Notes: generated by a model from the sequence alone, not told the origin. A stretch of DNA of 64,000 bases from Haliotis rufescens (GCF_023055435.1 NW_025964112.1:56916001-56980000); one strand, 5' to 3'; numbered from the stretch's first letter, positions 1-33,015 are shown. Program-made: numbers and translations.

Positions 1-157
1 TGCTTTACCATTATAAGTTATATTCTACAGTTAATGCCCCTTTTCTTTACACTATCAAAAATGGAATACTGGTTTTCCTACATATTGTCTTGTATTGAGG
101 ACGACATTTCTTTTAGTCTTGAAACAAAGAATTCATATATTCTGTTTTCACACTTAC

Positions 158-184
158 GTGAAGAGGAAACATATGATCGCCGTC
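158..184 (-). CDS. Micro-exon, 27 nt, (R)RRSYVSSS; last exon visible in the window
   Basis: Identical exon with intact CAG/GTAAGT; no stop reached. Confidence 0.72.
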
Positions 185-3100
185 CTGTAATAAAATTTGA
201 AGTGGTAAATGTGATAATCTTCATAGTACTGACCATAATTTAACTATAGATGACACAGCTCTTTTGATGTATATATTATTTTGGTGGTGATTCATATGTT
301 AGTTGAAGGTTTGAAATTTGGATTCCAAAAACATAGGATGTATATTAGACCAAGCTAACAATGGGAGTATTTATGTTTTATGAAATTGATGGTTTTAAGT
401 GATATTTGAAAAGATTTTATCCTTTATCTCTTGAAACAACAAGGTCAATAATATCTCTTATTGTTTGGTTCTCACACATAGTGCTAGAAACATATGATTG
501 CCGTCTTGTAAAGTAATAAAAAAGAACATTAATCATGATCTAATGCAACAATAATCAGGCCATAAATGATACCTAATTGTATGAAGGAGTTTTAGATATT
601 TGTGTTCTTTTTCATCTTCTATTGACTAAAAAACATTCGGGATTAACTCGGTACAAGTGGGAAATAGATTAATCTTACAACAATATTCATTCTGTGCATG
701 TATGGATATGAGAAGTTTGCATTGTCAAAAGATAAATTTAGTGTTGAATATATATTACATTAAACTTTATTTATGCATAAACTCTCGGGCAAAAGAAACT
801 ATACACCCATGTTTGATGGTAAGTAAAACTGGACAAACAAGAAATGGTTATTCGATGGGAAAGTATTTCGCACGGGTGTCGTAGTTATGTTTTGGATCTT
901 AAGTTTGTAGTGATTCGGCGACTGATTTAGCCTAAATACATTTTGATAACGATTGTTATTTTTTGATCAAATCAAACTTTCAAGAGTATATTTCTTGTTT
1001 GCCCGGCAATATCTTACAATCTTAATGAAATGACAAAAGCATGTTTTATGCAACATTCCCTTCATTATTATAAGCTATATTGCGCCGTTAATGTTGTTTA
1101 CTTTATACTTTCAATAATGGATTAGTGGTTTCCTAAATATTGGTTCTTTATTTAAGCAAATATCCTTTGACACTTCAAACCAAAATATATACACCCTCTT
1201 TTAACACTCACTGGAGTTGGAACGTCGACCTGTAATGCAATGTTAAGAAACAACTGTTAAACCTTCATGATACTGGCCATAATTCAACTAAACGTAAAAC
1301 AGTTCCTTTCCTGGTTTTATGTTAGGCTGTATACAAATATGGAGAATGTTTCTGATACTGGTTTCCTAAATTCATCATCCACTAAAATGAAACAAATTCT
1401 TAGCCTATAAGAGACAAATGGAAAATAGTTTAAATGTATTATAATCTTCATTCTGATGATGTGACGATATTAAAAGATTGCAATTAGTGTTACACATAAA
1501 TAATATTTGACTAATTTCTAGATGTCTACCCGAAAAGGTGTTGTCACTGTTATATACGATATTACGAAAATGACAAGAGTGACAAGTGCAAACGATGCTT
1601 TACCATTATTAATGATGTTCTACAGTTAACGCCCCTTTTCTTTACACTATCAAAAATGGAATAATGGTTTTCCTACATATTGTCTTATATTGAGGACGAC
1701 ATTTCTTTTAGTCTTGAAACAAAGAATTCATATATTCTGTTTTCACACTTACGTGAAGAGGAAACATATGATCGCCGTCCTGTAATAAAGTTTAAAGTGG
1801 TAAATGTGATAATCTTCATAGCACTGACCATAATTTTTATGTTAGGCTGTATACAAATATGGAGAATGTTTCTGATACTGGTTTCCTAAATTCATCATCC
1901 ACTAAAATGAAACAAATTCTTAGCCTATAAGAGACTAATGGAAAATAGTTTAAATGTATTATAATCTTCATTCTGATGATGTGACGATATTAAAAGATAG
2001 CAATTAGTGTTACACATAAATAATATTTGACTAATTTCTAGATGTCTACCCGAAAAGGTGTTGTCACTGTTATATACGATATTACGAAAATGACAAGAGT
2101 GACAAGCGCAAACGATGCTTTACCATTATTAATGATGTTCTACAGTTAACGCCCCTTTTCTTTACACTATCAAAAATGGAATAATGGTTTTCCTACATAT
2201 TGTCTTATATTGAGGACGACATTTCTTTTAGTCTTGAAACAAAGAATTCATATATTCTGTTTTCACACTTACGTGAAGAGGAAACATATGATCGCCGTCC
2301 TGTAATAAAGTTTAAAGTGGTAAATGTGATAATCTTCATAGCACTGACCATAATTTTTATGTTAGGCTGTATACAAATATGGAGAATGTTTCTGATACTG
2401 GTTTCCTAAATTCATCATCCACTAAAATGAAACAAATTCTTAGCCTATAAGAGACTAATGGAAAATAGTTTAAATGTATTATAATCTTCATTCTGATGAT
2501 GTGACGATATTAAAAGATAGCAATTAGTGTTACACATAAAAAATATTTGACTAATTTCTAGATGTCTACCCGAAAAGGTGTTGTCACTGTTTTATACGAT
2601 ATTATGAATATGACAAGAGTGATAAGTGCAAACGATGCTTTACCATTATAAGTTATATTCTACAGTTAATGCCCCTTTTCTTTACACTATCAAAAATGGA
2701 ATACTGGTTTTCCTACATATTGTCTTGTATTGAGGACGACATTTCTTTTAGTCTTGAAACAAAGAATTCATATATTCTGTTTTCACACTTACGTGAAGAG
2801 GAAACATATGATCGCCGTCCTGTAATAAAATTTGAAGTGGTAAATGAATGTGATAATCTTCATAGTACTGACCATAATTTAACTATAGATGACACAGCTC
2901 CTTTCATGTATATATTGTTTTGGTGGTGATTCATATGTTAGTTGAAGGTTTGAAATTTGGATTCCAATAACAGAGGATGTATATTAGACCAAGCTAACAA
3001 TGGGAGTATTTATGTTTTATGAAATTGATGCTTTTAAGTGTTATTTGAAAAGATTTTATCCTTTATCTCTTGAAACAACAAGGTCAATAATATCTCTTAT

Positions 3101-6100
3101 TGTTTGGTTCTCACACTTAGTGCTAGAAACATATGATCGCCGTCTTGTAAAGTAATAAAATAGAACATTAATCATGATCTAATGCAACAATAATCAGGCC
3201 ATAAATTATACCTAATTGTGTGAAGGATATTTAGATATTTACTACAGAAATGACAAAAAATGTGTTTTAACGCAATATTCCCTTCATTAGCATGTTACAG
3301 AGTTAATGTTGTTTACTTTACACTATGAAAAATGGAATAGTGGTTTCCTAAATATTTGTTCTTCATTAATGTAGATATCCTTTGACACTTGAAACAAAGG
3401 ATTTTTATACATCCCCTTTTCACACTTACTGGAAGAGGAACGTCGACCTGTAATGTTAAGAAGCAACTTTTAGAAATTTTAGTTTTAAATATTTACATTT
3501 TAATACTCATTCTGAGCATGTATTGATATGAGCATAATTATGTTTCATCAACGATAAGATGACATCAAATTTTATCCTCAAGTTCTGCATGTTATTATTT
3601 TATATTGTTTCGTGTGACGATTCTTTTCAATACATAATAAGAACTATGAGAGATAAGACATTACATCACTGACGACCACAAGTGCTAAAGCAAGGGAAAG
3701 AAGTTAATATCAACATTATTTAATCATAGAAAGAAGAAGCAAGTGTTTTAACACATTTGAAACTTCACAAATACCTTTTTTTGACGTAATAAACGCGCCG
3801 CTCTAAAAAGCGCCCACGGCGATATTTGCTAATATATTAGCTAGTGAACAATCCCAATTAGCATCCCTTCCGATTGATCAATGTACACAACACTTATTTA
3901 TTCGCGTAAAATACGCACTCGTGTGTTATATGCACCCTTAATTATGAGCAATTAAATTCTGGTAAAATGTATCTCTCGTATATAAACATTTCAGGCTGTC
4001 AGCATAAACCACAAAATTTATCTTTCAACCCTGGTTTATTTTCATCAAAATAATATTCTAATAAGAGCCACCTATTTCTAATTTTGAGAGCGCCCTTGGC
4101 GCTTATTACGTCGAATACGGTATCTATCAGTAATACTACTTTTCATTTACGCCACTATTACGGAAAAGGTCGAGATATTGATACATAATCATGATTATTA
4201 TAAGACAATCATCGCATTTACTTGAATCAGGATGGAAACTACGAAATTCTGAGGAAAGTAAAATGTTGTGACATATTGATGCTTTGTTCTTTCAAATAAT
4301 TTATATCATGAGACTCAGTGACGTTTTTACAGTCTTCTTATTATGTGTTTGTCAATGAATTACATCCAGGCAAAGGTGTTACCAAAACATGGATTCTTAT
4401 ATCACTCGAAACAGAAATCAGCTAATACAGATATTTTTTGCAACCACAATAAAATATGACCTTCTGAAATATATAAAAGCGTCAAAACCTCTGCAATACC
4501 TAACACAAGTGCGATAGCCTATCGGCACGTACATTACAAGACGTCACCACAGCGAAAAAGTATGAATAAAATGAAGTGGTCAAGTTATTGTCATCGTCGG
4601 TTGAACTTGTCCTTAAAGGTATGTTTATACATTTGATTGCTTGGTTTTAAGGATTTTGTTTATAAAAACAAAAACAACAACAATAAAATTAGCTTAAACA
4701 TGACAAGCGTTATTGCCTTAACTTGGGTAACTGGGAAGCCATACCACTAAAAGCAGGAAGTTATACTGACACCCCTCTTTATACACGTTTTACAAGGATT
4801 ATCAGGTTATCGTGTTACACTATGTTATGTATAAAGGCACCAATTACGTGTGTTTAAGATAAATTCATTCTACATATTCTTACGTGAAGAGGTCTGTTTA
4901 GAATCTGTAAAAATAGAAAAGGATTAAGTGAGCTGTATCGAAACCTGCATCACCACCTATATGCAAAATATGACACATAAAACTCAGTTGTTGATACACT
5001 GCATCCAGAAAATCTGTAAGAGAACAAAAAGTAAGAACTTAAAACTACTTAGGAGCGCTGCATAATGCTACTATTTCTAGAAGTCACATTTAATTTTCAT
5101 CTCAATAAGTTCAGTAGTGAGAGAGAAAAACTCTCGCCGTGTTTGCGGCTATCTTTCTAAAATCGATGTCAAGGGCGAGATCATGCATTGACACAATGTA
5201 AACATTACCGATAATTGTTTTGCATTTCAGCGTCTTGGTTCCATGATGTCTTGGTTTGTGTCCAAAAAGGATTTGATAAACCCTTCTCTGACTGATTAGT
5301 GTATAACACTGTTTCACCTTATTTGATAAGCAAAAGATGGGTACCACCGACAGTAAGAAAACTAAAAGTATGAGCCACTGGCTATTGTATTCTCTTGATA
5401 TTCTGAAGAGCCCTGTTTGTGGATTTGTATTAGTCATAACGTAATAAAAGCCTAATAAAATCAGTTAGAGGACAACGCATGCAATAACGGAATGGAATTA
5501 CAAACTACAAACAAATATCCCCAGATATATTCATGATCTCTGACGTGTTTTCTTCAAGATATAACAATAATGGGTCTAATAAACAAGAGATGATACCTAG
5601 ACATATTTTATATCCTTAAAAAACAAGAAACGCATAATAATATAAACAATGAAATTATCAAATGCTCAGCCGAAACGATACGTAGGTTTTACTGAGTAGA
5701 ATCGCCAAATGACTTACCTTTTACACTGGAAGATTTCAGCGATCTTCCTACAAGAAAATTAATGCAAAAATTATAATTCTTTTATCTATAAATATTAATA
5801 ACGCATTTGAAGATTTGACTTCTTTTTTTCAAAGATATTATATATTTCAGTTATGTGATAAATCTTAAACACAATGTTTGCATTTACAAATTAAAGCTTA
5901 TATTCTTAAAATTATACAAAAAGATTAGAAATATACTTACTTCGTGTAACTGCAAAAAGGTAAAGATACACACATTAGTATATTTGAAATATGATTATTA
6001 AAGCCTATTATAAACTAGAAACTGATAGAGGAAAATAAGATATTTTCTATTTCACAGAATTGGCGTAAATCCATTACATTTCCATTTATATATATTTATG

Positions 6101-9100
6101 GTCATAGTTCAGATTATAGCTATAAGAACGCAAGTGATGTATAGCAAGATCTATGAATGGTTAACACATTTTAATGTATAGATATAATGTAATGTATACA
6201 AACTCGTACCTTCACAGTGCACATTCTTTGACATAAGTCAAACGTTCACGCCGTTGTTGAATTAAATGGTTGTCAGAAGAAGGAGTCATTGCGGTATATT
6301 AGAATATTCAGTGTACAATGCTGCTGTAAATGCTGCTCATATCAATTTTATCGACAGACGAGGAATACTTTTGGAATCTAATAAATTCATGTTCTGAAGA
6401 AACATTCTAGACATTTCATAACAAATCCGACTCATAATTGTACACTATAGTCATAAGGAAAACGGCGCGTGTATGTATGATACATTCATGTAACAAGCAG
6501 TGGCGCTTAATTTGGACATTGGTGCACATGACGTCGCGTGTCAAGCTGCCTTTATGTTGAGGTACAAATGGTTGGTTGGTTACATGAGGTTGGTTGGTTC
6601 AGCATGTTAAGCGCGCCAAGGGCATAGACGTCTACGTGAATGTCTCGAAACGTATACCTGATGATGCAGCTTATCGGTGTCTGTCACGACTGACTATTTC
6701 GTTAGGGATGAATCTATACATTCATGAGTCCAGGTGCGTAAATGTAACATAGTGATTCTACGTAATTATATGCATTTTAACTGAAAAGCCAATGTAATAT
6801 ATATCTAACTCTGCGTCTGAAAAGAGAAAACATTGTAAACAAAGCATTAGTGTTCTTCTGAATGCGATAAAAACGAGAAATTGGGACATAGGTCTGAAAT
6901 TATCGTCCATGCGCGTGTCTCATCATTTCAAAATGATCGCAATATTGATGTGTGTAATATGTGCATTATCGTAGGAAAATGATGTTATCTCATGCCATGA
7001 CATCCAAATTGTTGAATACTTAGTTAATATATTAATCAAGGGATATGGGATTTTTTAATTAAACATCTGGATATTCCGATCTTTGAATAAGTGATTGCTT
7101 ACTTTATGTTATCATCTTTGAATATTTGTTTGCTTAGTGATAGAAATTATAGGTATGGAATATCTTTTAAGATTTGGTTTACAGACACATAAGTCTTATT
7201 CATCTACATTCGGAACATGTCGCTTCAATGTGTTTTCGAGATGGAGAAATTAATTATGCTGGTCTTAATGCAAAACCAACAGTTATCATAAAAGTTATTG
7301 AAAATTTAAAACAAAACTATTATGACGAATATAGACTAAATGACTTTACACTCTGTTCAGTGTCCTAAGTGTGTACACTCAAGCAACATTTCTGGTGTCC
7401 ATCGCCTTGATCTTGCTGAAATTGCTAAAAGTGGCTTAAGCCATACTCACTCACCCACTCAGTCACACACATAAAACAAACACCTATTAACCATCCATTT
7501 TAATGCGTACTGGGCTAAAACAAATCTTACACCTCATCTGCTTTCCCTTTCAAACTGATGTGCATCTCTATTGGTAGTGGAGAGGCATTTCACCAGAACT
7601 TGTGTACAAAACAAATATCGCTAAGCAGACTTTGAATCTTTTTCCGTTTCTTCAAATGAAAAAATATCTTAAAAAGTTAATAGGTTCTTTACAGCCCAAT
7701 TAAACACCTATATACCTTAACTCTTTTAAGAAACAGAGGGTGGTTTAGAGTTGTGTGTTTCTGAGAAATCACAACATGATGAATAAGAACATGACCACAT
7801 AGTTACATTTGTGATGGGTCTACTTTGGTAAAGGACTTACAATATTTAATTTGATGCAGTCTGGAATTACTAATTTTGCTTTCTTTTAAATTTATGTCAA
7901 GACATTTATACTCAATATGCTTGTAACACAAAAACTGTCAACTATGATTTCGTGAATCAGTGAAATATATGGGGGCTTTCCACCCCCACCCCACACCCCA
8001 CATCTCCACCCACACCTACAACCCTCCACGGCTACCTAATTTCCTTCGACGTTTTCTTTCCTTCTTGCTCTTACGCCGATTCTTGCCGCTTTTACGTCTT
8101 CTGCCTCCTCGCCTTTTACCCCTGCCTCTCCGTTTTCCGATCTTCTTGCGCTTACGCCGATTCTTGCCGCTTTTACGTCTTCTGCCTCCTCGCCTTTTAC
8201 CCCTGCCTCTCCGTTTTCCGATCTTCTTGCGCTTACGCCGATTCTTGACTCGTTTTCCTCCACGCTTACTGCTCGGGCCCCTTCTCCCTGTTTTGTTTCG
8301 TTTTCCCGTAGCCTTGGTACGTTTGCGGTTTCGTTTCTTTCTCCCTCCTTTTCGTTTTCCTCTGCTTTGACCTGTATTGTCTGAAACACACGGAAAGAAC
8401 GAATACTTATCAGTAAGGAATGCCGAAGGGAAACAGTTGTTTATGAACATATTTTAGTGGTATTACCGAGTAAAATGGTTTATGGAGTTGTCTCCCTTTC
8501 ATATCTGCCAACAGTGGTCATGGCGGTAGAGGACGCCACACAACCACCGCTAGCAAACCAACTTCGTTGCAATGCAGTTGATGTTCGAGTTTTTCCGCAA
8601 TTCAGAGGAATGAAGAAAACGTGAAGAAGTAATTCAGGTATCATCGGCTTTGGCGAAGAGTTGTTTTCACCGATAGGCCCAGCGTGTCTGGGTACAGTTA
8701 TAAGTCGAACAGATGTAAAAGTGTTTGGATGGGAATATCAAGCAGATAGGTGGAACTGTTCTACCTAAGCATGTATTCACACTAGTTTCATACATGTATG
8801 GTACTGCTTGTTATATCCCTTCCATCTAAAGGACAAGCGACAGCCGTCTCATAAAACGTCTCATAAAACCTAAGTTTCAGTATATAACCTCTTCACCAAC
8901 ATTCAAAGGAAGAATATATTGTTTTCTTCTCATATCCCTTACGGGTATATAGAGATTACGATACGGGTGTCTGTCGGAAACCGTTTTTCTTACGAGTTGT
9001 TTCAAAACGTAGCTGACGAGTGAATGCGAGTTTGATACGTTTATAAACAACGAGTTGTTAGATAAATTGTGTACGAGAGCAGTAAACTGTTTCTTACAAA

Positions 9101-12100
9101 TCATAAAATCGCACAATTTTAGCATCGATTAGATGCATATTTGATCTATTCGCATAATGGCAGTGGCGCATTAATATATAACACAACGGTCACATGTGAC
9201 GTCATCCGTCTTACTGCTCACTTGGTCTGATGTGTCTGTCACATTAAATATTGGTTAAACGGACCGCCGTCGAATTCGATCTATCTTCCATACGATGCTT
9301 TGAAATAATGTGTTTTAGTGTATACTTCAGTGCGGAAGAGAAGTTGAGAAAAGTGATATTTTCACTGCAGTGAACATAACACTTTGACGGAAACCAACCC
9401 CTCTTTGCTGTATTTTTTTTTAATTTTCTGTATATAATCGTAATAATAGTCCATTTATATGGCGCTGTACTCCATGCATAAGCTTGCTCCAAATACTTAG
9501 ACATTGTTACCCCGGTCAGTGGATCAGTGTGTACACGATATTCATTCTTAGCTCCCTTGGGGGGTATACAACCCAAGCTGCCCGTGAGGCGCTAGAAGGT
9601 TAACAGTCATAGCCATCTCATCCTACCGGGTACCCATTCCCTGCTGGGTGAACAGAGGCCTATTACGAGCAAAGTCATTTTCCTAAGGTGACACCACATG
9701 TTCTACATGTGCTTTTGTGGGGGGGCTGGAGTACATACGCCTAACCAGATTGGTTACACATGCTGAGAAGAGATTCTGAAATTGCCGAGCATTTTGTTAT
9801 TTGTCGTTTGTTGTATGACGCCGCACTCAGCAATATTCCATCTACGTAACGACGGCCTGGAATTAATCGAATCTGGACATGAAAATTCAGTGAATGATAA
9901 TATGCACAACGTCATTTGCGGTCGGAGTACGATGACAGGCAGTCAACGATCACCGATCGCTGACCATGCGATCCTTTTAATCGCTGCTTACGGCCAGCAT
10001 AGGTGGTCCTATTCTAACCCGGAATCCCCGAAGGGATGGTAGGGGGTTGGTTTGGGTGATCGCGAGTAATAGTCTAGATAACGATGCTTTCAAAGCAATG
10101 ATTTGATACAGAACTGATCTAAAGTTTCAGATCTATTCTTACAGTGAGTGAGTTGGATTTAACGCCGCTTTTAACAGTATTCCAGTTATATCACGGCGTG
10201 TCAGCTTAATGTGGGAGGAAAGCCCGGAGTGATGCAGGTCTCAGACGTTTACCATTTCGGCGAAACATAATCGGGGCGAACCGGGATTCGAACTCACAAT
10301 CATAGGGTTCTGGCGTCCCCAAGGGACGCAACTCTGCACAGCGAATCGCTGCGCCTTAGTCGACTGGGCCACCCGTGCCCCCTTTTATTCTTAGAATGTG
10401 TGTAAACGTGAAGGGATGTACGAAAAGGCGGGTCTCAGTTGAGCTAAACATTAATAACTCAAGAATAGTAATAAAACTATTTTAATGACCATAAGAAATA
10501 TTGCCTGAAAGCAAAGGTCATTGTCCGATTCCGACTGTAATACTAGTAGATAGTAAAAAGAATGTTTTCATTAATCACTATCAAATAGTGATGAAATCAG
10601 GTGTTCGCCGAAAGGTGGGCGTTTCCTACCACACCATTGGCACCCGTCACAAACACACGTAAAGGCAAGTCAGCAAACACGGGAACACGTGGTACAAGTT
10701 GAAGTAGGGAATTGCATCGGACATAAGTTTGGTCACTGATGCGTCAAATTTGGAAATGGCCTTCACTTGTCTACCTTAAAACTTTTCGAAAGCTTTACTA
10801 AGGCCTGGAATGCTGTAGCCCTGATCAAAAAACATTTTAACACGAATTTTTGAATTATTCGTAGAAAGAGAAAATATACCTTTTCGATTTCCAGAAGCAG
10901 TCTTACTACGCTGAGCTCCAGCTGAAAATAATAAGCGTAATTTATTGAAATAGTCATATCATAATAGAATGTTCCCAGAACTAAAAAAGTGTGTATCAAC
11001 TGACGCATATCTCCAAACAGCATAAACCATTTCCACAACTTAAGTAGCCATTTGTATTTAATCAGAATACCCAACCATGTGGATCTTTTATTGGCATTTA
11101 GAAGTTAGATGAACATGAATACATGACACTTTTTATAATCTAAAGACAAAAGCCAGCATCTTCGTACCCAGCGTATACTCTACTGTGGTTTAACCATATC
11201 ATTAACCGCAAGTGGACATCTTGATTGTCTTATTGTTATGCTGTCACCACAGTCAGCTCTTTGTCATCACACTCAGCCCAATTACTACACCTTCATTGTA
11301 CTTAATTCGCTTCTCTCCCTTTAATACCCTTGGGTTCCGCGTTTAGTATTATATACTACAGTGAGGAAGACTGTGTTTGAGAAAAGTTATATTTTCACTG
11401 CAGTGAACATACCACTTGATATTTCACTGCAGTAAAAAATAACAATTTGACAGAACTATTGTCATACAAGAGTTACCTCCCCGCAAATTGTCTCCCTTTA
11501 TCGTAAGTGTTTGGCAAGTACACAAACTGTTGGCTTCTTTTTAAAGTTAGTTCAACAATGACAAGGGAAAATAAATGACATTTATAGAGTTAATATTTTC
11601 TGTTTTGTTATTTTCTTGAAAATGTTTCGATATAAACTAAATTTCTCATGTAACTCGTCAATCGAGACTGTTCGTTTCGCAAAGCGCCATTTCTGTTACT
11701 TGAACAGCCGTGTCGTTGCCACTTGTGAAAATATCTCCTTTCCCTCGTCACTCCATGAGAAAAAACATGATATTTCACTCGACACTGATTTAACATCTAT
11801 ATCTTTGTGCCGTATCAAACTTGTATGAACATGTCAGTTTGTATATATATGTTAACTCAAACGCTTACTCAGTATTAATCTGATTAAGTGGCAGGAAGAA
11901 ACGTCGTTACAGAGAATAAAGAAGTTTTTATCAATACCAAAAAGTGTCATGTATTCAAATATAGTTGTCGAAACATGTTAAAGTAATCCCTATTTTGATT
12001 GTATATAAATCAGACGGGATGTGAGTTGAAATGGGGATTAACGTTGAGTTCTCTCTCGCGTTCTCTAAGTAAAACCTGTTTTAATAAAACAAGAGGTTTC

Positions 12101-15100
12101 CCCTTGTGCCAGTATATTATGACAGGGGACGAATCTTGATACTCTTTATGTCCATATTTACAACTAGATAACGTTCGGCATGCAGCAAAAGAACCTTGAT
12201 TTAGAGTTCAACAAGATTCTGGTTTCATGCGAAATTGTGGGACACATGGTTGCAGCAAGTTCAACTTTATATATGATACTATCTACATGCAGCAATGGGA
12301 ATCTAGAGTATTAGTTCGACAAGGTTCTGGTTTCATGCAAGAGGTGGTAAGAACTGAGACATTATCGTCCATGCATCATTTCACGATGATCGCAAAAGAT
12401 TGTCGTGTGTAACATGCGCACAATGAAATGCAAAGGATGTTACCTCATACCATGGCATCACAATTATGGAATACTTGCTTAATTTATTAATAAAGGCATG
12501 CAGTTCAAGACCTGGGATTTGTGATTATTCATTATCTTTGAAACTGAATATAAATCGTGATTGACAAAGACTGCATGGCTTTACAAGTTGTTCAATATTA
12601 TTTGTACGCACAAAAACAAACACTTTTTAACCATCCATCTTAATGCGTGTTAGGGGCAAATGGAAACTTATGCCGAATTTGCTTTCCTTTTCAAACTGAT
12701 GTACAGTATCTATGGGAGTGGAGATACGTTTCACCAGAACTTGTGTAAACTCCCAAAAAATGCTTAGCAGAATCGGAATCTTTTTTCAGTTTGTTCAAAT
12801 GAATGAAATATCCTAGAAAGTCATTGGGTTCATTTTCATCCCAATTACACATCTATATACCTTAAAATTGTTTGCAAAAAGTGGGAAGTTTAGAGTTGTG
12901 TGTTTCTGAATCACAATATGATAATAAGAACATGACCACATAGGTACATTTGTCATTGAGTATACTTCTGTAATGGATATAGAACTCTAAACTACTTTCA
13001 CAATTATTCAGTTGCACGTTTCATTAACTTTCACAATTTTCATAGCTTCAAAACAATAATTTGTAGCAACACTATCTTCCCTTTTTTTTGTAAATGTTAA
13101 CTACAAACGGTTTATGTTCACAAAATCCTAACACGAAGTAATATAAAAGAGGTCAAGGATATATCATGCATTGATCCTATTTCTGTGAATTAGTGTTACA
13201 CATCATGCAAATTCTATCCCATGCATATCTCAGTAATGTTACCTCCGCGGTTTCTTTCCCGAGCTCCTGCAGAAAGAGTAAGTCATATATTTATTCTTGT
13301 TTTAAACGAATGAGAAGCAAAAGAGAAAAGTACTTACCAAAGAGTGGCAATGCACCATTGTCGAATGTCTTCTTCTCTTGCCAATTGGTCTTGGGTGACA
13401 CAACTCGCTGTGCAGAGTTGCTTCCCTTAGTCCTTCTAGGGTATACTGGTTGTTCGAATCCCGATTTTGAATCTTGGCCTGTTATCCGATCCGCGGTTTC
13501 GTGTTTCCACGCCGTGATGTAACTGACGTACTGCTCAGAATGGCGTAAAAAAATCACGCACACTCGACACACGCACACTACGCCTAGTCTCCATGCAAGA
13601 GGTGAGGTGAGGTGAAATGGGGTTTAACGTCGCGTCCAAGATTATTGCACTTATATAGCGACGTGCATGCACGTGTATGTATGTGTGAGGCTGCTTGTAC
13701 TAGTCCGGACTAATGCCGATTTATAGTGCTAGCTCACTGAGATACCCTGCCGCAGTTTAACATGAATACCCCGCTCAGAGTGAGTGAGTGAGTATGGTTT
13801 TACGCCGCTTTTAGCAATATTCCAGCAATATCACGGCGGGGGACACCAGAAATGGGCTTCACACATTGTACCCATGTCGGGAATCGAACTCGGGTCTTCA
13901 GCGTGACGAACGAACGCTTTAACCACTAGGCTACCCGACCGGTAACGGTAGACACAGTATACTGTCTCCGAGCCGACCAGTCCTTGTTTTAGCCCCTTAA
14001 TGCCGAGCGCCAGACAAGGTAACAACAAGTACCATCTTTTAACGTCTTTTGGTATGACGCGGCCGGGGATCGAACCCCGGACCTTCCGCTCTCCGGGCGG
14101 ACGCTCTACCACTAGACCACGGAGGCGGTCCTCCATGCAAGAGACTTAATTGTGGTGTGATATTGCTGAAAGATTGCTCACAGCGGCGTAAACCGATATT
14201 CAATCTCCAGTAACATAGTTCCATTGTAGGAATAATCCGTTTACATTTAGTTAAAATAAAACTATGTGTTTTTTAACGTTATAAAATGATTGTTTCGTTT
14301 AGTGATAAATGACACCGTTTATTTTCCAACACGAACTGATTAGAAACAAAGGGGCTTTTAGTCGTTAAATGTTCACGAGTTAAATGTTATCTCAAGTTAT
14401 CGCACCAGAAGAACACTGTACAACAACATCTGATACAAAAACAGTTCTTACCTGATTTGGACCCTGTGGATTTCGAACCTGTAAATAGAAAAAAAATTCT
14501 CAATATTGAAAAGGCAACATTTATCGCATACCCTCAAGTATGTCTACATTTCTGAAATGTTGCATTACCTGAGGAATTATATTTATACAAGGGTTGTCAG
14601 TGTGCTTCCACGGCAGTGTCATTAAAGCAGCTTGTATTTCTAATCCTTATTTTTGTAGCTTACAATCACCCTGACAAATAGTAACTATCTGCTGATGTTA
14701 TCTTTGGAATGCTGGTACATATATTTCCAACGGAACCCTTATAAGTATGTCATATACATTATGTTCTCCTTGAAAACTATCATGTATGTAATAAAATCTG
14801 CTTATATGGTGTTTTTTTACAACTACTCAACTTGATCTGTCGTCTATTGATGTACTCAACTTGTGTCTGTCCCTTTGTGAGCATTGCAACTTTACTGAGA
14901 GTTAAATGGTACAGAATAATCATTTTCAAATCAAGCAAAAAGTACTTATCCCCAACATTTCAACATCATGTTTTATTGCTTACGGCAAAAGAAAATTACG
15001 TTGACCCCAAACTTCTTTAATTACGACGTCAATCCATGCATCTTCGTCAGCGGTTAGTCGTTTCAGGTCAGAATTGGTGATATTTGACTCATTGTGTTAT

Positions 15101-16899
15101 GTTTCCTACTGCTATGTCAAACACGTTGGACATTGACTCCGGAAATAATACGGTTTTTTAAAGTTTTTAGATGTTCTCCTTCTGTGGTAACATGGTAATA
15201 CATAAGTTGTTTACTACCAATGATATTCCATATGCTTACATGGAGAGTGTATATGACTCATTTGGTAAACCTAACAAATTAGAATTAACAACGACCATCA
15301 TATATTTCATTCGAACACTAGCATTCATTAAAGGGTTTGGAAAGGATCTATCTGTAAATGTTGTGCTATTGAGGAAATGGTTGACAGTAGAATCTCACTT
15401 AAAGCACTTTATATTTAACGTCGCATCGGTAATACATCAGCAAAATACCGATTGATATCATTTGACGAGTTAAGACATTGAAACAAAATTCATTAAAGGT
15501 AAATATACGATAATAAGAAATAATCCTTGGAGCATTATTCAAAATTAAAACAGAAATATACAATACAGTAATTACGTTTGCAACTCTGCGCAGTTATATT
15601 CAATCGTACAACAACAATTCAAAGATCTACAGGTAAATAAAGAATGTGTTAAAAATTAGTTCTAAAGTACAAATGAGTTAGGTCTTTAATCGGAAAATTG
15701 TTTCAGAAAATAAATGACAAGAACCTACTAAAAAGGTATGGTAATTTAAGCAATCAGACATTGGAAATTTGTACTTTTAGCTATTTCGAGGAAAAATATT
15801 TATTGTAAATATTGACTGAAATAACTCTAATATGTCTATCTGATCAATCTCCATACATTGAAAATATTTCGTGATGGAGCTTGCAATATTCGGTTCCACA
15901 CAAATATATGAGCGAGCGAAAACAGGAAAATGATGTTTAAAATTCTGGAAATGAAGATACATGCTTTTGACTAAATGCGTGGCTAGTTTTAATAAATATA
16001 GAGATAATCAGTGAAAATAATTTATTAGTAAACAAGTGCCTATAAGGATATCATGAGTTTAAACTTGTCCAGACTGTTCCTCTGTGTCATTTTCGCAAAA
16101 TTATTTTGACTAACCCTTTGACACCTGCACACGTATAACAATAATATTTAGATTATATTGGGTACAATGTTCGAAGGCCATTTCTGTTTTCCCCGCTGTG
16201 ATATTGCTGGAATATTGCTAAAAGCGGCGTAAAACCAAACTCCCTCACTCACTCGCTTAGATTGTATAATGTTTAGAATTTATAAACATAATGAAAATAG
16301 AACGCTTTTCTCCAGGTACAAATATTGCTTTGTAGTTAATAAAAGCGACAAAACTATTGTCATGATCAAAAGAAATCTCTGTTAAAGAATATCAAATAGC
16401 GCCTAAATGTGGCATCTAAACTATACTTTTTCTGCATATTAGTATATATGCGTGGTCAAGTGCCCTGCTAGCGAAGTAATAAGAGCCGGTGAGTGAGTGA
16501 TTGAGTTGGGTTTAACACATTATCAATATTAACTCAATATATTAAAACAACAACTACAGCCTTCTGCATTACCCAGATTGTCAGAAGGGCTGTATTCCTG
16601 GTAGCAAACCCGGGCACTCTCCCAATGTCGGTCAACAGATTGGGAGGTACCAAACCTGAGGCACCGAGAACAATGGGGAGTCGGACAACTTGACACTTAA
16701 GATGCGTGCTCTGCATATTTGCCATGTTTTTCCTGAATCTTGTCAATTACATTAGTGTCAAAAGGGACAGAAAATTCAATAATAAAAATGATTTCATTTG
16801 ATATATCAAAAAGGACAAGATCAGGTATGTGGCCTGGATGGGTCTGAGGCTGTATACGGTCCTATTCCCACTAATTTTGTATTTATCATTTTCCACTCT

Positions 16900-16956
<57 letters not shown>

Positions 16957-17842
16957 AAATAGTATTAGTAGTAGTAGTAGCAGTAGTAGTAGAAATAGTA
17001 CTAGTATATAAATTAATCACAATCAAACAATTTGTGGAACAAGTTGGTATAAAGCATATGATCAATTGAAATATTTATTATATACCAAGTTAAGAGCGTA
17101 CAAAATTAACAGTTAAACTATAAGCAGGGCTTGCAGGTAGTGAAAGCTGTCAGTGTCGAGAGTAATTCAAGAGTGTCCTTTCTTATTCAATATCGACAAC
17201 ATGATTATACAACATATATATCAAACGGCATGTATGTGATACACTGGTACAATTTCTATATCAGTTATCAACACTGCATTACCTTTACACTGTTCATTAT
17301 CACATATTCCTTTGTAGCTAATTTGCCCAGCTGAAGATGTATTGATATTCTCCAAAGTTAACATATTAATGGTCCCTACTGCTGTTGTCATTCCATAGCT
17401 TACTGCTGTTGCCCACTAAACTAACTAAAGAGTCCACCGTGAGTGGTTAAGGTCTTTCTAATGGGCATATGTTACAAAGGTGAGACCGACACTTAGTCAA
17501 AGGTAATCAATAGCTAGTTTATACTAGTTCACATAGGTTTCAACAGATAGACAGTACGATCCGCTTGAGCTGCATTTAACAGTCTCAGTCACACCTATTA
17601 AATCACAAGCCAAGACAATGCAAAAAGAAACCTTAAATATCCTTCTCCTTAGTCATGAAATCGTCTTTCACATGTTAGAATGAAAAAAAGTTGTCTACAT
17701 TACCTTACTGACGAAACACTATTTCCTGCCTCCTATTAACTAACTCATAATCCCTTTTAAAGTAAGAAATGAGCTTACTTTGTGCAGACGAAATGGCCAC
17801 CAGGGTGACAACCACCAGAAGGAGAAGTATCCACCACCTCAT
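158..17842 (-). CDS. Multi-exon micro-exon gene for a secreted Arg/Lys/Ser/Gly-rich basic protein (3' end lies beyond window start). Model: join(17842-17779,14478-14452,13266-13243,10921-10880,8380-8036,5949-5941,5747-5718,4904-4884,4248-4222,3447-3430,2819-2793,2299-2273,1779-1753,1229-1212,184-158)
   Basis: Manual splicing gives 733 nt, open throughout: MRWWILLLLVVVTLVAISSAQ-SSKSTGSKS-GARERNRG-AGAQRSKTASGNRK-DNTGQSRGKRKGG...RKRRRKL-VTR-RRSLKSSSVK-DSKQTSS-QFRSFHPDS-SRRSSS-RRRSYVSSS-RRRSYVSSS-RRRSYVSSS-RRRSNS-RRRSYVSSS. Every internal exon is flanked by YAG and GT, is a multiple of 3 and is phase 1-1. No transcript evidence available. Confidence 0.75.
481..505 (-). pseudogene. Decayed micro-exon (RRSYVSST-like) with mutated splice sites
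   Basis: Homologous to the 27-nt exon, but acceptor CAG is CAA and the GTAAG donor is lost. Confidence 0.55.
601..1025. repeat. Dispersed repeat inserted in one cassette copy; related to about 46500-46918
   Basis: Absent from the paralogous cassette at about 3240; shares aaagaaa(c/g)tatacacccat...acaaacaagaaatggttattcg with 46805-46870. Confidence 0.55.
1212..1229 (-). CDS. Micro-exon, 18 nt, (R)RRSNS
   Basis: CATTGCATTACAG|GTCGACGTTCCAACTCCA|GTGAGT; paralogue of 3430-3447. Confidence 0.72.
1753..1779 (-). CDS. Micro-exon, 27 nt, (R)RRSYVSSS (duplicate cassette)
   Basis: Identical exon with intact CAG/GTAAGT. Confidence 0.72.
2273..2299 (-). CDS. Micro-exon, 27 nt, (R)RRSYVSSS (duplicate cassette)
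   Basis: Identical exon with intact CAG/GTAAGT, 520 bp from neighbouring copies. Confidence 0.72.
2793..2819 (-). CDS. Micro-exon, 27 nt, (R)RRSYVSSS
   Basis: TTTTATTACAG|GACGGCGATCATATGTTTCCTCTTCAC|GTAAGT. Confidence 0.75.
3120..3144 (-). pseudogene. Decayed micro-exon (paralogue of 481-505)
   Basis: Plus strand cacacttag-tgctagaaacatatgatcgccgtc-ttgtaaag; both splice sites degenerate. Confidence 0.55.
3430..3447 (-). CDS. Micro-exon, 18 nt, (S)RRSSS
   Basis: CTTAACATTACAG|GTCGACGTTCCTCTTCCA|GTAAGT; phase 1-1. Confidence 0.75.
3771..4122. mobile_element. MITE-like element with terminal inverted repeats
   Basis: Left tacc...gacgtaataaacgcg is inverted relative to right gcgcttattacgtcgaatacggta; TA ends. 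Confidence 0.5.
4222..4248 (-). CDS. Micro-exon, 27 nt, (Q)FRSFHPDS
   Basis: TTTTACTTTCCTCAG|AATTTCGTAGTTTCCATCCTGATTCAA|GTAAAT; phase 1-1. Confidence 0.65.
4884..4904 (-). CDS. Micro-exon, 21 nt, (D)SKQTSS
   Basis: TTTTCTATTTTTACAG|ATTCTAAACAGACCTCTTCAC|GTAAGA; 3' end CCTCTTCAC shared with the 27-nt exon family. Confidence 0.8.
5718..5747 (-). CDS. Micro-exon, 30 nt, (R)RSLKSSSVK
   Basis: TTTTCTTGTAG|GAAGATCGCTGAAATCTTCCAGTGTAAAAG|GTAAGT; phase 1-1. Confidence 0.8.
5941..5949 (-). CDS. Micro-exon, 9 nt, (V)TR
   Basis: CCTTTTTGCAG|TTACACGAA|GTAAGT; phase 1-1. Confidence 0.65.
6890..7835. repeat. Intronic segment paralogous to 12355-12975
   Basis: Collinear diverged blocks (attatcgtccatgc..., ttcaaactgatgt..., tttcaccagaacttgtgta, aataagaacatgaccacatag); this copy carries a SINE fragment at about 7365-7470. 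Confidence 0.85.
8036..8380 (-). CDS. Large Lys/Arg-rich exon (345 nt, protamine-like composition); could instead be terminal, with stop at 8016-8018
   Basis: Acceptor TTCTTTCCGTGTGTTTCAG at 8381-8382, in phase 1 with the K/R-rich ORF 8016-8450; internal 81-bp duplication (8071-8151/8152-8232); weak phase-1 donor AG|GTAGCC at 8035. Confidence 0.8.
   Translation of the reverse strand, partial: TIQVKAEENEKEGERNETANVPRLRENETKQGEGARAVSVEENESRIGVSARRSENGEAGVKGEEAEDVKAARIGVSARRSENGEAGVKGEEAEDVKAARIGVRARRKENVEGN
9540..9720 (-). mobile_element. Old SINE fragment with Nin/Deu-like core
   Basis: ccgggtacccattccctgctgggtgaacagaggc resembles the conserved Nin/Deu SINE domain (recognised from memory). 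Confidence 0.45.
10143..10382 (-). mobile_element. SINE family B (tRNA-Leu-like head, ACTC tail), internally deleted copy
   Basis: A box TGGCCCAGTCG and B box GTTCGAATCC; homologous to copies at 22716, 47783 and 52968. Confidence 0.85.
10880..10921 (-). CDS. Micro-exon, 42 nt, (A)GAQRSKTASGNRK
   Basis: TTATTATTTTCAG|CTGGAGCT...AATCGAAAAG|GTATAT; phase 1-1; composition matches neighbouring exons. Confidence 0.7.
13243..13266 (-). CDS. Micro-exon, 24 nt, (G)ARERNRG
   Basis: CTTACTCTTTCTGCAG|GAGCTCGGGAAAGAAACCGCGGAG|GTAACA; phase 1-1. Confidence 0.75.
13375..13580 (+). mobile_element. Old diverged SINE family B copy
   Basis: tcgctgtgcagagttgc.tccctt, gttcgaatcccg and cacgccgtgat...ggcgtaaa match family B. 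Confidence 0.7.
13602..14130 (-). mobile_element. MetaSINE-like tRNA-derived SINE with a nested family A SINE
   Basis: tRNA head GACCGCCTCCGTGGTCTAGTGGTAGAGCG...GGTTCGATCCC followed by Meta-like GTCATACCAAAAGACGTTAAAAGATGGTAC; TSD ctccatgcaagag at 13589-13601 and 14131-14143. Confidence 0.8.
13779..13941 (-). mobile_element. SINE family A (tRNA-Asp-like head), nested
   Basis: Near-identical to copies at 18966, 50861 and 51234. Confidence 0.9.
14452..14478 (-). CDS. Micro-exon, 27 nt, (S)SKSTGSKS
   Basis: TTTTTTTTCTATTTACAG|GTTCGAAATCCACAGGGTCCAAATCAG|GTAAGA; phase 1-1. Confidence 0.8.
16545..16746 (-). pseudogene. C-terminal remnant of an RLE-type (R4/R2-like) non-LTR retrotransposon ORF
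   Basis: PIVLGASGLVPPNL...VPG...MQKAVV resembles the PIVIGALG...QKAVL terminus of such elements (recognised from memory). Confidence 0.5.
16901..17005. repeat. (AGT)n microsatellite
   Basis: Seen directly. Confidence 0.95.
17779..17842 (-). CDS. Exon 1: start codon and signal peptide (MRWWILLLLVVVTLVAISSAQ)
   Basis: CACC-ATG context, basic n-region, hydrophobic core and S-S-A cleavage-like end; donor A|GTAAGC at 17778 in phase 1; TATA and CCAAT boxes upstream. Confidence 0.85.
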
Positions 17843-17968
17843 GGTGAAGATGTGGCTGTGGGCGACACTGGTTCCTACAACGTCGCTGTCACTGGTCAAC
17901 TGTCGTTCAACGTAAATGAATTCGGGAACGACCGCAGCGTTTGCCGTCAGGCCTTCTTCCAGCTCAGC

Positions 17969-18046
17969 TTTATACTCTCATTCCGTTACCTGATGTTCCA
18001 GGGCATCTTTCATTGGTTGAAACCTGACGGAAAACATTCTGATTGG
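17969..18046 (-). promoter_or_regulatory. Pol II core promoter of the micro-exon gene
   Basis: On the minus strand: TATAAA at 17969-17974 (about 130 bp upstream of the ATG) and CCAAT boxes at 18012-18016 and 18042-18046; a further CCAAT on the plus strand near 18093. Confidence 0.7.
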
Positions 18047-18965
18047 CTGAGACGTGATGTTTTGGCGAAGGGAGGACTTTTATTGCTATTGACCAATAGA
18101 ACGTAAGCCACATGATGATATGTATTGAATAGGCGTCTATGAGAGTCTATCAGACGTGGCAGACTGTATCAATAATCATGAAACGGGCATTGTTGCATAG
18201 GTGTAATGTAGCCACGAACGCCTTGTCAGTCTCCCTCTGCATATAAAGTAATCTTTCAAGTTAATCCTGTTTAACTGTTTCTTCTTGTTATTGTTGCCAT
18301 AATAGTTTATGTATTAGATAATGTTAAATCAATTTTTTATTATTCAAATGTTCATACAGTAACGGTAAACGATATATGCCTTCAGCGAAGTGTTTGGGTA
18401 CATAATTACATGGATAATATCAAATAGTTCCGTTATAGTAGCTACACGTATTCATAACTGGAATCACCCATAAGACAGCGATGTGTGATAGATGCAAGGA
18501 CAGGAAACTGAATTAATAAATATATTATTCAGAATCGCATGAAAAAATCTGAAAGTGAGAAATACTTGAAACTATATTAAAATCGTGCCGTTTATTTTGT
18601 TCTCATTTTCGATAACAAGAGCGTTAAACTCGTTGTTCAACAAACTAGTGTTATTCCCATGTACGTTACGCTATGCGCATTTTTGGTCTGAAACCTTATC
18701 ATAAATAGAATACACACGTTGCACGAATCACTTAAATGAGCGGCGCAGCCAAGTGTGAAATCTCAACGTCAGTCACGAGATGAGATACATGTTATTTGAA
18801 AAGAAAATGACAAGAATTATATTTATTATGTATTATCACTTATTTTTGGAGACCTAATTAGTATTTCATCAATACATGCATAATAAAGTTTAATAATCAC
18901 AGTTCAATGCTACCATGAACTCATCGACATGTTCCCGTTCTTCATCATGATACGATTTTTTAAGA

Positions 18966-19129
18966 GAGAGAGTGAGTATGGTTTTACGCCGCTTTTAGCA
19001 ATATTCCAGCAATATCACGGCGGGGGACACCAGAAATGGGCTTCACACATTGTACCCATGTCGGGAATCGAACCAGGGTCTTCGGCGTGACGAGCGAACG
19101 CTTTAACCACTAGGCTACCCGACCGCCCC
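18966..19129 (-). mobile_element. SINE family A, full length
   Basis: A/B boxes, GTC anticodon-like loop, TSD cgattttttaaga. Confidence 0.9.
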
Positions 19130-25292: not shown

Positions 25293-25433
25293 NNNNNNNN
25301 NNNNNNNNNNNNNNNNNNNNNNNNNNNNNNNNNNNNNNNNNNNNNNNNNNNNNNNNNNNNNNNNNNNNNNNNNNNNNNNNNNNNNNNNNNNNNNNNNNNN
25401 NNNNNNNNNNNNNNNNNNNNNNNNNNNNNNNNN
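25293..25433. other. Assembly gap
   Basis: N run. Confidence 1.
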
Positions 25434-26999: not shown

Positions 27000-27770
27000 A
27001 TGTGCATGGTAAAAAAAATTTCTAAATTTGAAAATATAATAACAATGAAAAGTTTCAATTTAAACTTTAATAGGCGGATTTTATCATCATAAGAAGACGG
27101 TAGAACAGCATGTTTAATGTCCATGACATTGACGTTACGAGTCCAAATGCGGGGCAGGGGTCAAGCAACAATGTCACAAACTCAATAACGGATATGCCCA
27201 CCGTGCGCAATGATAACAGCAGTGCATCGCCGACACTTAGGGTCTATCAAATTTGGCATGGAAGGTTTGTGAAAAGGCTTGCTATATTCTCTGCAACTCT
27301 GCTGCCAAATCACCAACATTATCTGCGGGATTTGGCACTCGGCGGAGACGTCGTTCCATTTCATCCCACGCATAGGGAAGCGATCCGGTGAATTTGCATG
27401 CCAAGTCAGAACTTGGACATAGTGATGTTGAAGAAAAGACATAGCAACCCTAGCCGTTTGAGGAGGGGCATTATCCTTTTGGAATGTCAATCCTTGGCCA
27501 TGACATTGAAGAAGCGGAATTGCCACTGGTGCGACAATCTGATCTCTGTCGCCCACACCTGTCAAATCGCACTGAACAACAACCAAAGGGGTTCTCTGAC
27601 TTGCACTTATCCCACCCCAAATCATCACGGAACCACCCCCCAAAGAGATTCCTCTCCATGATACCGGCACGAGCATAACTCTCCCCATAACGTTCTGTAC
27701 ACACGTTGACGTCCGTCACTCTGGGAAATGTTAAATCTGAGACTCGTCTGTAAAAACAACAGTCCTCCAC
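27000..27770 (-). pseudogene. Tc1-like DDE transposase remnant
   Basis: GGGSVMIWGGIS, FQKDNAPP and LTWHANSPD motifs; FTDES in another frame upstream; frameshifted. Confidence 0.85.
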
Positions 27771-30819: not shown

Positions 30820-31492
30820 AACTGACGCTGTAGAGTAACCAATCAGACACTATGTTCTGGGAAGTACGGGCGGCCCGATGCTGTAGAGTAACCATTCAGA
30901 CATGTTCCGGATGCCAAAGCTCTATACACATCCGTACAAAGACAGTTAGTACACCTTCAGCTCAGAATGCCGCGATCTGATTGGTTAACGTGACGTGATA
31001 AAATACGATGTATCTAGCCACCCGTACTACCTGGAACATTGTATCTGATTTGTTCTCTAAATTTTGACACGTTTCTAAGAAGGTGAAGTAAAACGATCAT
31101 AAATGAACAACGCTGTTTCTTTTTTAAAAAAAAACGTCTGATCAGTTATTCTACAGCATGGGGCCACCCGTAGCAGCCGGAACACTGTGTCTGATTGGAA
31201 AATCTTCAGCATTTGGCCACCCGTACTAGCCAGAACACTGTGTCTGACTGGATAATCTACAGCATCTGGCCACCGGTACTACCCAGAAAATTGTGTCTGA
31301 TTGGTTACTCTTCAGCATCGGGTCACCCGAACTACCAAGAACATTGTGTCTGATTGGTTACTCTACAGCATCGGGTCACCTGAACTACCCAGAACATTGT
31401 GTCTGATTGGTTACTCTACAGCATCGGGTCACCCGAACTACCCAGAACATTGTGTCTGATTGGTTACTCTACAGCATGGGGCCACCCGTACC
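30820..31492. repeat. 53-bp repeat array I, with two inverted units at 30820-30905
   Basis: Unit gtgtctgattggttactctacagcatcgggtcacccgaactacccagaacatt. Confidence 0.85.
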
Positions 31493-31599
31493 AATGTATT
31501 ATGTTAGCTTCTTGTCGTCACTTCGTCACGTCGAAGGGCCTGGTTCGATTCACAACATGGGTACATTGTGCTAAGCCCATTTCTGCGCCCCTCATTCTC

Positions 31600-31806
31600 A
31601 CCACTCCACACACCTACCCTCCCCCCCCCCCCCCCCCCCTTCCACACACACACACCTACCCCCTTTCACACACCTACCCTCCCCTTCCACACACCTACCC
31701 CCCCCCCCCCTTCCACACACACATACACCCCCCTACCTACCCCCTTCCACACACACACACGCGCGCGCACGCACGCACGCACGCCCACACACACACACAC
31801 ACACAC
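31600..31806. repeat. C-rich/(CA)n low-complexity tract
   Basis: Seen directly. Confidence 0.9.
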
Positions 31807-32324
31807 TACGTTGACAAGTATACGTGCACTGCGTTTTTCTATGGCAGACAACAATCCGATATGTTCCTATGCTTCCGTATATTCTTATATCGACAGTGAA
31901 ATTATTTTCCAAATTTAATTGCGCACGTAAACACTGCGCGCGCATATGAGTGTGTGAAGATGCTGACACAGAGAAACTAACGTGTTCCTCTGGACAAAAC
32001 ACCGGAGCAAACAGGAATCAAATCGATGGCGAGTTTGTAAAGGTAGCATTTAGTGACAGACCCTTTTGATGAAGACGGTAGCAGATGGCTTTTAACGTGC
32101 ATACATAATGGTTCCGTTTGTGTAGTCGTCTATGTATGCCTAGCATGTCAATTTTAGCCATGCCAATATCCACTCGTCAACAACCGTCAAAGCAAAAGCT
32201 TATTTTCTTGTAGCCGTGCAACCCAATAGGTACCACTGAAATCAATTGGTTGTGTAGTTAAACGCAAATCCTGATTTCATCGCATGCAAAGACGATTTTA
32301 ATTTCATTTGTGATGTCACGTTCT

Positions 32325-32325
<1 letters not shown>

Positions 32326-32374
<49 letters not shown>
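32326..32374. repeat. (TGTC)n microsatellite
   Basis: Seen directly. Confidence 0.95.
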
Positions 32375-32377
<3 letters not shown>

Positions 32378-32419
32378 ACGTGTATGTGCCTGACATTCGT
32401 GTTATTGGAATATATCATA

Positions 32420-33015
32420 TATCTTATTAATTAAGGGGTAAATCCTGTATTTCATTGATCTTTTAAAGAAAGTTCATATTTCAATATTCAAGAGACTGTA
32501 GGTAATGTCTGAGAATATATATAACACATATCCTATATATCAAAGGGGTAAATCCTGTATTTTACTGATCTTTCGGAGAAAGTTCATATTTCAATATTTA
32601 AGAGACTGTAGGTAATGTCTGAGAATATATATAACATATATCCTATATATCAAAGGGGTAAATCCTGTATTTCATATATCTCATATTATAAAGGGGTATA
32701 TATCTTATTAATAAAGGGGTAAATCCTGTATTTCACTGATCTTTCGGAGAAAGTTCATATTGCAATATTTAAGAGACTGTATGTAATGTCTGAGAATATA
32801 TATAACATATATCTTATTAATAAAGGGGTTAATCCTGTATTTAACTGATCTTTCAAAGAAAGTTCATATTGCAATATATGAGACTGTTGGTAATGTTTGA
32901 GAATATATATAATATATATCGCATATATTAAAGGTGTAAATCCTGTATTTCACTGATCGTTCGGAGAAAGTTCATATTGCAATATTTAAGAGACTGCAGG
33001 TAATTTCTGAGAATT
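32420..33015. repeat. ~110-bp tandem repeat, about 5 copies
   Basis: Recurring ggggtaaatcctgtattt...aaagttcatatt...gagactgtaggtaatgtctgagaat. Confidence 0.9.

Follow-up and report, generated by a model that had tools for sequence, protein, structure and literature searches.

The minus strand of this window, by which we mean the whole 64,000-nt stretch of Haliotis rufescens DNA that was analysed, carries a lysine-, arginine- and glycine-rich exon (the K/R/G exon) that shares its phase with a signal-peptide-like first exon and with an array of very small exons on either side, and given that shared phase a secreted polycation is its natural predicted product. The K/R/G exon is under coding-level selection for charge along its whole length, and we think it probable that at least one isoform uses it. 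What the protein does is of course a harder question, and our answer is a tentative one, held with a little less than even confidence: by analogy with the flatworm adhesive protein ap3, the product would be secreted and disordered, a polycation that forms cross-bridges between the polyanions of mucus or matrix.

The K/R/G exon and the gene around it

A pyrimidine tract and CAG acceptor ending at 8381 open the exon at 8380, and if the donor AG|GTAGCC at 8035 is used the exon spans 8380-8036, which is 345 nt or 115 codons. Read on to the stop codon, the frame (8378-8019) holds 120 residues, among them 40 Arg, 30 Lys, 24 Gly and a single acidic residue, so that K+R amounts to 58% and G+R+K to 78%. 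Hydrophobic residues are scarce (2 Ile, 2 Leu and 1 Val of 120), there is one Pro and no His, RS/SR pairs number only two and R-x-K/R-R sites seven, and the pI is about 12. A tandem duplication of an 81-bp (27-codon) unit occupies 8247-8061 in 2.3 copies with 99% matches, its longest exact run being 97 nt, and the read-through tail (8035-8016) closes with GSRGGL and a TAG at 8018-8016, directly followed by an out-of-frame, donor-like TAG|GTGTGG. All of the figures that an initial annotation had given for this exon proved correct, namely about 115 codons with more than half K/R, the 81-bp (27-aa) internal duplication and, as sequence, the read-through to GSRGGL and a stop at 8016. AlphaFold2, run on the exon alone as a single sequence, returned no confident fold (pLDDT 63.5, pTM 0.20). 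A second open frame over the exon (8440-8036, minus strand), Glu-rich and 134 codons long, has a stop that coincides with the AG of the 8035 donor and a weak Collagen match in Pfam below the cut-off (E 0.04); we rejected it because it meets the acceptor in phase 0 and is unreachable from the phase-1 exons. Leu/Pro/Arg/Phe frames on the plus strand, which have no Pfam match, were set aside as mirror images.

Purine-rich DNA is expected to yield K/R-rich frames in any case. That the K/R/G frame is a chance product of such DNA can nevertheless be rejected, as none of 5000 dinucleotide shuffles reached 58% K/R in any frame, the best frame averaging 39.5%. The exon is the sole stretch in the 64 kb with at least 27 K/R in a stop-free 60-codon window, and all six Arg codons occur in it. 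Net charge per residue was also compared with shuffles in repeat-free slices, and was matched by 0 of 5000 for 8378-8169, 0 of 5000 for 8165-8037 and 1 of 5000 for 8270-8169; the bias therefore extends to the end of the exon, beyond the internal donors described below. The net-charge signal is weaker in the first 108 nt taken alone (115 of 5000 shuffles), and plain K+R over the first 129 nt (8378-8250) is not significant (271 of 5000). Taken together, the selection on charge and the duplication that keeps the frame speak for translation of the exon and against its being a poison exon.

Upstream, a motif scan finds consensus matches to CCAAT at 18046 and 18016 and to TATAAA at 17974, and the presumed 5' UTR (17945-17843) holds no upstream ATG. 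The candidate signal exon has a 64-nt coding part (17842-17779) running from an ATG at 17842 to a phase-1 donor, A|GTAAGC, and encodes a 21-residue hydrophobic stretch that is signal-peptide-like as judged by hydrophobicity rather than by a predictor. Positions 1-19000 hold one other hydrophobic first-exon candidate, which is weaker and not in phase 1, and no second signal exon was found between 8016 and 5950. A splice-site scan, which used a generic donor matrix and an acceptor score of our own, places three micro-exons between the signal exon and the K/R/G exon: 27 nt at 14478-14452 (SKSTGSKS) and 24 nt at 13266-13243 (ARERNRG), both phase 1-1, and a probable one of 42 nt at 10921-10880 with an alternative in-frame donor after 15 nt, a pair of endings (15 or 42 nt) that follows the same pattern as the K/R/G exon itself. 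Ten more lie downstream, of 9 nt (5949-5941), 30 nt (5747-5718, RSLKSSSVK), 21 nt (4904-4884), a probable 27 nt (4248-4222) with a weaker donor and an atypical composition that falls outside our R/K/S/G filter, 18 nt (3447-3430, RRSSS) with its 18-nt paralogue (1229-1212, RRSNS), and four identical 27-nt copies (RRSYVSSS) at 2819-2793, 2299-2273, 1779-1753 and 184-158. These four have multiplied via tandem exon+intron duplication, the second and third copies belonging to 520-bp exon+intron units, and the gene runs on beyond position 1, its donor at 157 being open. Two further copies of the 27-nt micro-exon, at 3145-3119 and 506-480 (minus strand), have decayed and lack acceptor and donor, a glimpse of exon birth and death.

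The visible gene thus has 15 exons, 13 of them symmetric phase-1 micro-exons of 9-42 nt. Over positions 1-17700 of the minus strand the scan gave 19 micro-exon candidates, 15 of them divisible by three, and 13 of those 15 open in phase 1, whereas five control stretches of similar length gave 3, 0, 3, 2 and 4; with the R/K/S/G filter, which was picked after the exons had been seen, there were 20 phase-1 hits as against 0-2 in eight controls. Joined in a script, the 15 exons read without a stop for 244 aa, with a net charge of +97 over the 224 visible mature residues. The read-through form would have 173 residues and a net charge of +76, and skipping the K/R/G exon keeps the frame and leaves 129 visible residues with +30. 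The 77 residues encoded downstream are 40% Ser and 27% Arg, arranged in Ser/Arg repeats. Both the signal exon and the downstream micro-exons of the initial annotation are present, and the K/R/G exon is in phase with the two. Anatomy, frame, composition and duplications are all read from the DNA itself, and we are highly confident that the anatomy is as described.

Several other features share the window, whose interspersed repeats appear to resemble those of abalone. Intron 2 holds a weak tRNA match (14055-14126, minus strand; Rfam RF00005, 31.2 bits), probably the head of a tRNA-derived SINE, and assembly gaps (N runs) fall at about 25293-25433 and 46919-47077, none of them within the gene. 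A frame at 27182-27715 (minus strand) has no Pfam match at E<=0.01, and we take it to resemble a decayed Tc1/mariner transposase. Satellite arrays with units of 53, 109/110, 47 and 41 bp (the last in 128 copies) fill 31136-34405, 36751-38736 and 40436-45701, and are followed by a (GTG/TAG)n microsatellite region (45703-46251) with an open Gly/Ser/Cys frame of 182 codons and no Pfam match. At 48270-49739 a 30-bp unit is repeated in about 49 copies; its plus strand is open for 489 codons, Thr-rich and mucin-like, and its minus strand is open and Cys/Ser/Arg-rich, with SINE-like repeats interrupting downstream and no Pfam match. Finally, units of about 1.5 kb, 96-99% identical, are repeated in tandem from 56587 until the array leaves the window at 64000.

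How the K/R/G exon may end

The initial annotation had seen a two-way choice here, between running on to the stop and splicing at a weak donor at 8035. Weak the donor certainly is: on the generic matrix it reaches 3.4, where the 13 other donors of the gene score 5.8-12.7, and it is given -3.8 by a model built from 10 distinct donors of the gene, which themselves score 1.3-7.4 when left out in turn. The two-way choice did not hold up, since six in-frame donors inside the exon, after 111, 144, 180, 225, 261 and 306 nt, score 3.9-4.8 on the generic matrix and so outdo the 8035 donor, the lowest of the seven, and yet another donor, the out-of-frame TAG|GTGTGG, lies directly behind the stop (6.2 by the generic matrix but -5.5 by the gene-trained model). 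A further option, of 9 nt, reaches 3.3. More than two outcomes are therefore possible, all of these isoforms being predictions. Codons for Arg-Lys and for Ser-Lys generate the internal GTAAG donors in part automatically (CGT-AAG encodes 3 of the 12 RK pairs), and for this reason the donors are no sign of selection.

All in-frame donors of the exon score below the gene's other donors on the generic matrix, and its acceptor is middling (joint 6th of the 403 AG in 13242-5950), so that the exon may often be skipped. One could take this further and propose that the exon is a mostly skipped or stop-bearing (poison or terminal) cassette, in which read-through, or splicing at the donor behind the stop, would terminate the protein or lead to decay, and that the main product is the Ser/Arg micro-exon chain. 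The weakness of every in-frame donor would fit such a proposal, as would the 129 aa visible in frame after skipping and the generic score of the donor behind the stop, which is followed by four G-runs. That same donor fares badly on the gene-trained model, however, and charge selection and the in-frame duplication speak for a translated exon. Moreover, no AATAAA occurs in the 2066 nt behind the stop, a weak argument given that shuffles (mean 1.9) also lack it in 18% of cases and that four ATTAAA are found there, those at 7850 and 7504 among them. On balance we consider a mainly skipped or stop-bearing exon very unlikely.

Two features behind the exon bear on its being spliced through. The first is a set of five G-runs within 70 nt of the 8035 donor (8035-7966), a possible intronic splicing enhancer by human analogy, as in TP53, where a weak donor is described as sustained by five G-runs (PMC12062376). 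Ten other donors of the gene are followed by 0-1 G-runs, and the cluster is unique on the minus strand below position 34700; documented cases of such enhancers are human genes, and we found no account of them in molluscs. The second is a pair of collinear blocks, 7835-7465 and 7044-6896, which are 79% and 74% identical to 12977-12606 and 12499-12358, both within the intron that follows the 24-nt exon; the window holds no further copy. This suggests an old duplication of exon plus intron, and an intronic origin of the DNA behind the K/R/G exon. Clear paralogy is limited to the introns, and a low-copy mobile element may be an alternative explanation. Homology between the 24-nt exon and the end of the K/R/G exon was not upheld, with 14 of 24 matches there against 15 of 24 elsewhere; the gapped score of 37 exceeds all but 9 of 2000 shuffles but falls below the top 10 of 1850 window controls. 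Because of the five G-runs, the missing AATAAA, the intron-derived DNA and the intact exons downstream, splicing through is mildly favoured, and appears somewhat more likely than a dedicated terminal exon.

Candidate roles for the product

In the mechanism that we favour, exon 1 would route the chain into the secretory pathway, and symmetric phase-1 micro-exons, multiplied by tandem exon+intron duplication, would supply Gly/Arg/Ser/Lys linkers before the charge core and Ser/Arg repeats after it. The core would be the K/R/G exon, enlarged by its in-frame 81-bp duplication and most likely spliced through, either from the 8035 donor with the aid of the G-runs or from an internal in-frame donor, and a lesser share of the product might come from read-through to the stop. 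The secreted chain would attach to the polyanions of an epithelial secretion and link them to one another, for instance glycans that are sulfated or carboxylated and proteins that are acidic, and we propose the mucus or adhesive of the foot or mantle as the site, with a cohesive part to play as for the GRK-rich ap3 of flatworms. With a positive charge on roughly every second residue, Gly as a spacer and very few hydrophobic residues, such a chain would be suited to binding and bridging polyanions rather than to folding or membrane insertion. The initial annotation had named polyanions, mineral and microbial membranes as possible binding partners. A limpet pedal-mucus protein is described as bearing basic, Arg-rich repeats (PMC7333891), and two supplements of that paper gave no match to the motifs of our gene. 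Expression, secretion, isoforms, tissue and partners are in this account all matters that we infer.

A bolder version of the same idea is that cassette micro-exons, a ladder of seven in-frame donors inside the K/R/G exon that would keep 17 to 69 basic residues, and the stop option together allow splicing to adjust how long and how charged a glue or matrix component is, in an MEG-like gene that a mollusc has built independently. We regard this as rather improbable. Were it true that splicing varies charge, it would offer a simple genetic tuning of an underwater, coacervate-type material; if splicing does not vary charge, the gene would be one more lineage-specific, low-complexity secreted protein. 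Highly basic secreted proteins are something of a blind spot, being shredded by trypsin and down-weighted in homology searches, and gene finders tend to miss exons of 9-30 nt. The gene offers a specific protein to consider as the cationic component of mucus, adhesive or shell matrix in gastropods.

Database searches returned no relatives. The K/R/G exon was scored against 8000 candidates of near length and against 8000 of 211-2000 aa, with none at E<=0.001 in either set, and the signal peptide with 18 intron-encoded residues against 32 candidates of 71-2000 aa, with none at E<=10. A phmmer search over 1.84 billion representatives gave 0 matches, PDB sequences gave 0 at E<=1, Pfam gave 0 families for the exon and an exact look-up found 0 of 2 sequences. 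Since the exon scores 168 bits against itself (the signal peptide 35.7), a copy identical to it would have stood out among the candidates scored, and the exon is probably unannotated in the sets searched; bias correction may hide diverged low-complexity relatives. In the searched literature five motifs of the gene occurred in no paper, and searching by title and opening of the abstract brought up nothing that describes this gene or a comparable one in abalone, most subscription papers being outside that scope; 'Haliotis' with 'microexon' gave only unrelated titles, PMC13544226 contained none of the terms and PMC2989941 had them in its references only. Because neither a homologue nor a Pfam family was found, the adhesive or cohesive function is proposed from composition.

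The same composition might serve a different secretion. A mantle polycation of the shell or periostracum would be a matrix protein of basic, low-complexity sequence, there to partner the acidic proteins of the matrix or to make mineral particles aggregate, and we find this doubtful. Ser runs are phosphorylated in other biomineral proteins, and this might apply to the Ser runs here. Abalone shell proteomes include many disordered, repetitive, lineage-specific proteins, some of them basic and Ser-rich (PMC6003135), and a basic secreted peptide of a pearl mussel is associated with aragonite aggregation in vitro (PMC13756312). Descriptions of molluscan repetitive low-complexity (RLCD) shell and mucus proteins, among them basic ones (the CLC_73 group of H. 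laevigata, Songin, and limpet P-vulgata_4), likewise portray secreted, disordered, biased and repetitive proteins with no detectable homologues; they differ in that none, by the descriptions compared, has a K/R/G block or described micro-exons, and our motifs are unmatched in the texts and supplements searched. For example, of the 27 supplementary files of PMC6003135, 12 contain none of six motifs of the gene and another contains none of four, which counts only weakly against a shell role, since sequences may be missing from those files and a protein of this kind would be cut to pieces by trypsin.

The visible part could also be a charged flank at the N-terminus of a much larger secreted protein with several domains, the folded ones being encoded beyond position 1, and indeed a C-terminus beyond the window could carry domains that alter our interpretation. 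The gene leaves the window with its donor at 157 open, and Macrostomum Mlig-ap1 provides a precedent in its GRK flanks round a lectin/vWD/EGF core (PMC9229212, PMC6745481). Searches among proteins of 211-2000 aa with the exon, and of 71-2000 aa with the signal peptide, gave no match, two weak negatives, and we judge the flank explanation quite unlikely.

Antimicrobial peptides are a natural thought for any secreted polycation. Here a convertase would cut a precursor at its basic sites and the fragments would attack microbial membranes at mucosal surfaces, for which the signal peptide, the pI and the seven R-x-K/R-R sites look suitable, and linear cationic antimicrobial peptides do exist in molluscs in the form of molluscidins and myticalins, which are likewise cationic, unstructured and rich in dibasic sites (PMC5577615). 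With so few Ile, Leu and Val, however, amphipathicity would be poor, and the micro-exon Ser/Arg array is left unexplained. Myticalins, as described in the same source, have three exons encoding a signal, a Pro/Arg-rich peptide of 23-42 residues, a dibasic site and an anionic tail, whereas our gene has at least 15 exons, one Pro in the K/R/G exon and no anionic pro-region in its visible part, and it is not a myticalin. Nor is it a molluscidin, since those short dibasic-repeat peptides have no signal peptide and a signal exon is present here. An antimicrobial precursor strikes us as unlikely.

The initial annotation called the exon protamine-like, and this stands for composition and goes no further. 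Arg clusters, a pI of about 12 and a length of about 100-120 residues are shared with invertebrate protamines, which are often cut from precursors, as PMC12216123 describes them (measured against a range of 30-106 residues and a pI of 12 or more, 120 residues is slightly long). A nuclear sperm protamine could conceivably be made from an internal start, the ATG at 8450, which is in frame and open to the stop and would give an intronless ORF of 144 residues without signal peptide. Such an upstream ATG is at chance level, though: among random intron positions 357 of 1272 have a comparable one, as do 3 of the 13 other acceptors. The pyrimidine tract accounts for the 24 extra codons, and 8451-8700 has no TATA-like box. 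Protamines are nuclear proteins with no secretion signal, whereas this exon belongs to a multi-exon gene and is in frame with a signal-peptide exon, has 25% Lys and 20% Gly, and has few RS pairs. We consider a protamine exceedingly unlikely, and the caveat that the product is no nuclear protamine if exon 1 is used was well placed.

Flatworm adhesive proteins and schistosome MEGs as comparisons

The closest likeness to the secreted, cohesive polycation that we favour is found in flatworms. There ap3 has a signal peptide and a G/R/K(H/S) low-complexity region, and its proposed role is a cohesive one, with a negatively charged molecule bringing about its release (PMC9229212, PMC6745481). Tmed-ap3, which carries a signal peptide, counts 1051 K, 880 R, 581 G, 444 H and 288 S among its 3700 residues (PMC9229212). 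The ap3 proteins (Tmed-ap3, Mile-ap3) and the GRK flanks of Mlig-ap1 share a signal peptide, a low-complexity G/R/K sequence with tandem repeats, the lack of a folded domain and a very high pI. Our gene follows suit with a hydrophobic first exon in phase with a G/R/K exon (R 33/K 25/G 20/S 6%). It differs in size and in histidine: ap3 is described as having 3700 aa and 12% His, and here 115-120 codons without His sit in a micro-exon array with Ser/Arg repeats, 244 aa being visible and the rest lying beyond the window. The likeness is compositional, the protein searches with the exon having given no match and low-complexity relatives being hidden by bias correction. The product would work like a GRK cohesive protein, but one without His.

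In its layout the gene recalls instead the schistosome MEGs, which are described as secreted proteins with a signal peptide, 10-20 very short exons mostly divisible by three, long introns and room for alternative splicing (bioRxiv 10.1101/2023.06.21.545858). The same source calls them specific to Schistosomatidae and gives them a hydrophobic motif after the signal peptide (bioRxiv 10.1101/2023.06.21.545858). Alike are the signal peptide and the many tiny symmetric exons, 13 of 15 visible exons here measuring 9-42 nt and all in phase 1-1. The coding sequence of an MEG is about three quarters micro-exons, and in our gene, with its 345-nt exon counted, the share is 44% of the visible coding sequence (the 3' end lies beyond the window). 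Our gene differs, too, in encoding a polycation, in having Ser/Lys/Gly after the signal in place of a hydrophobic or aromatic motif, and in multiplying its exons by tandem duplication. As read from its predicted exons, then, the gene is laid out like a schistosome MEG, though it departs from one in motif and in micro-exon share, and it shows an MEG-like exon layout outside the schistosomes.
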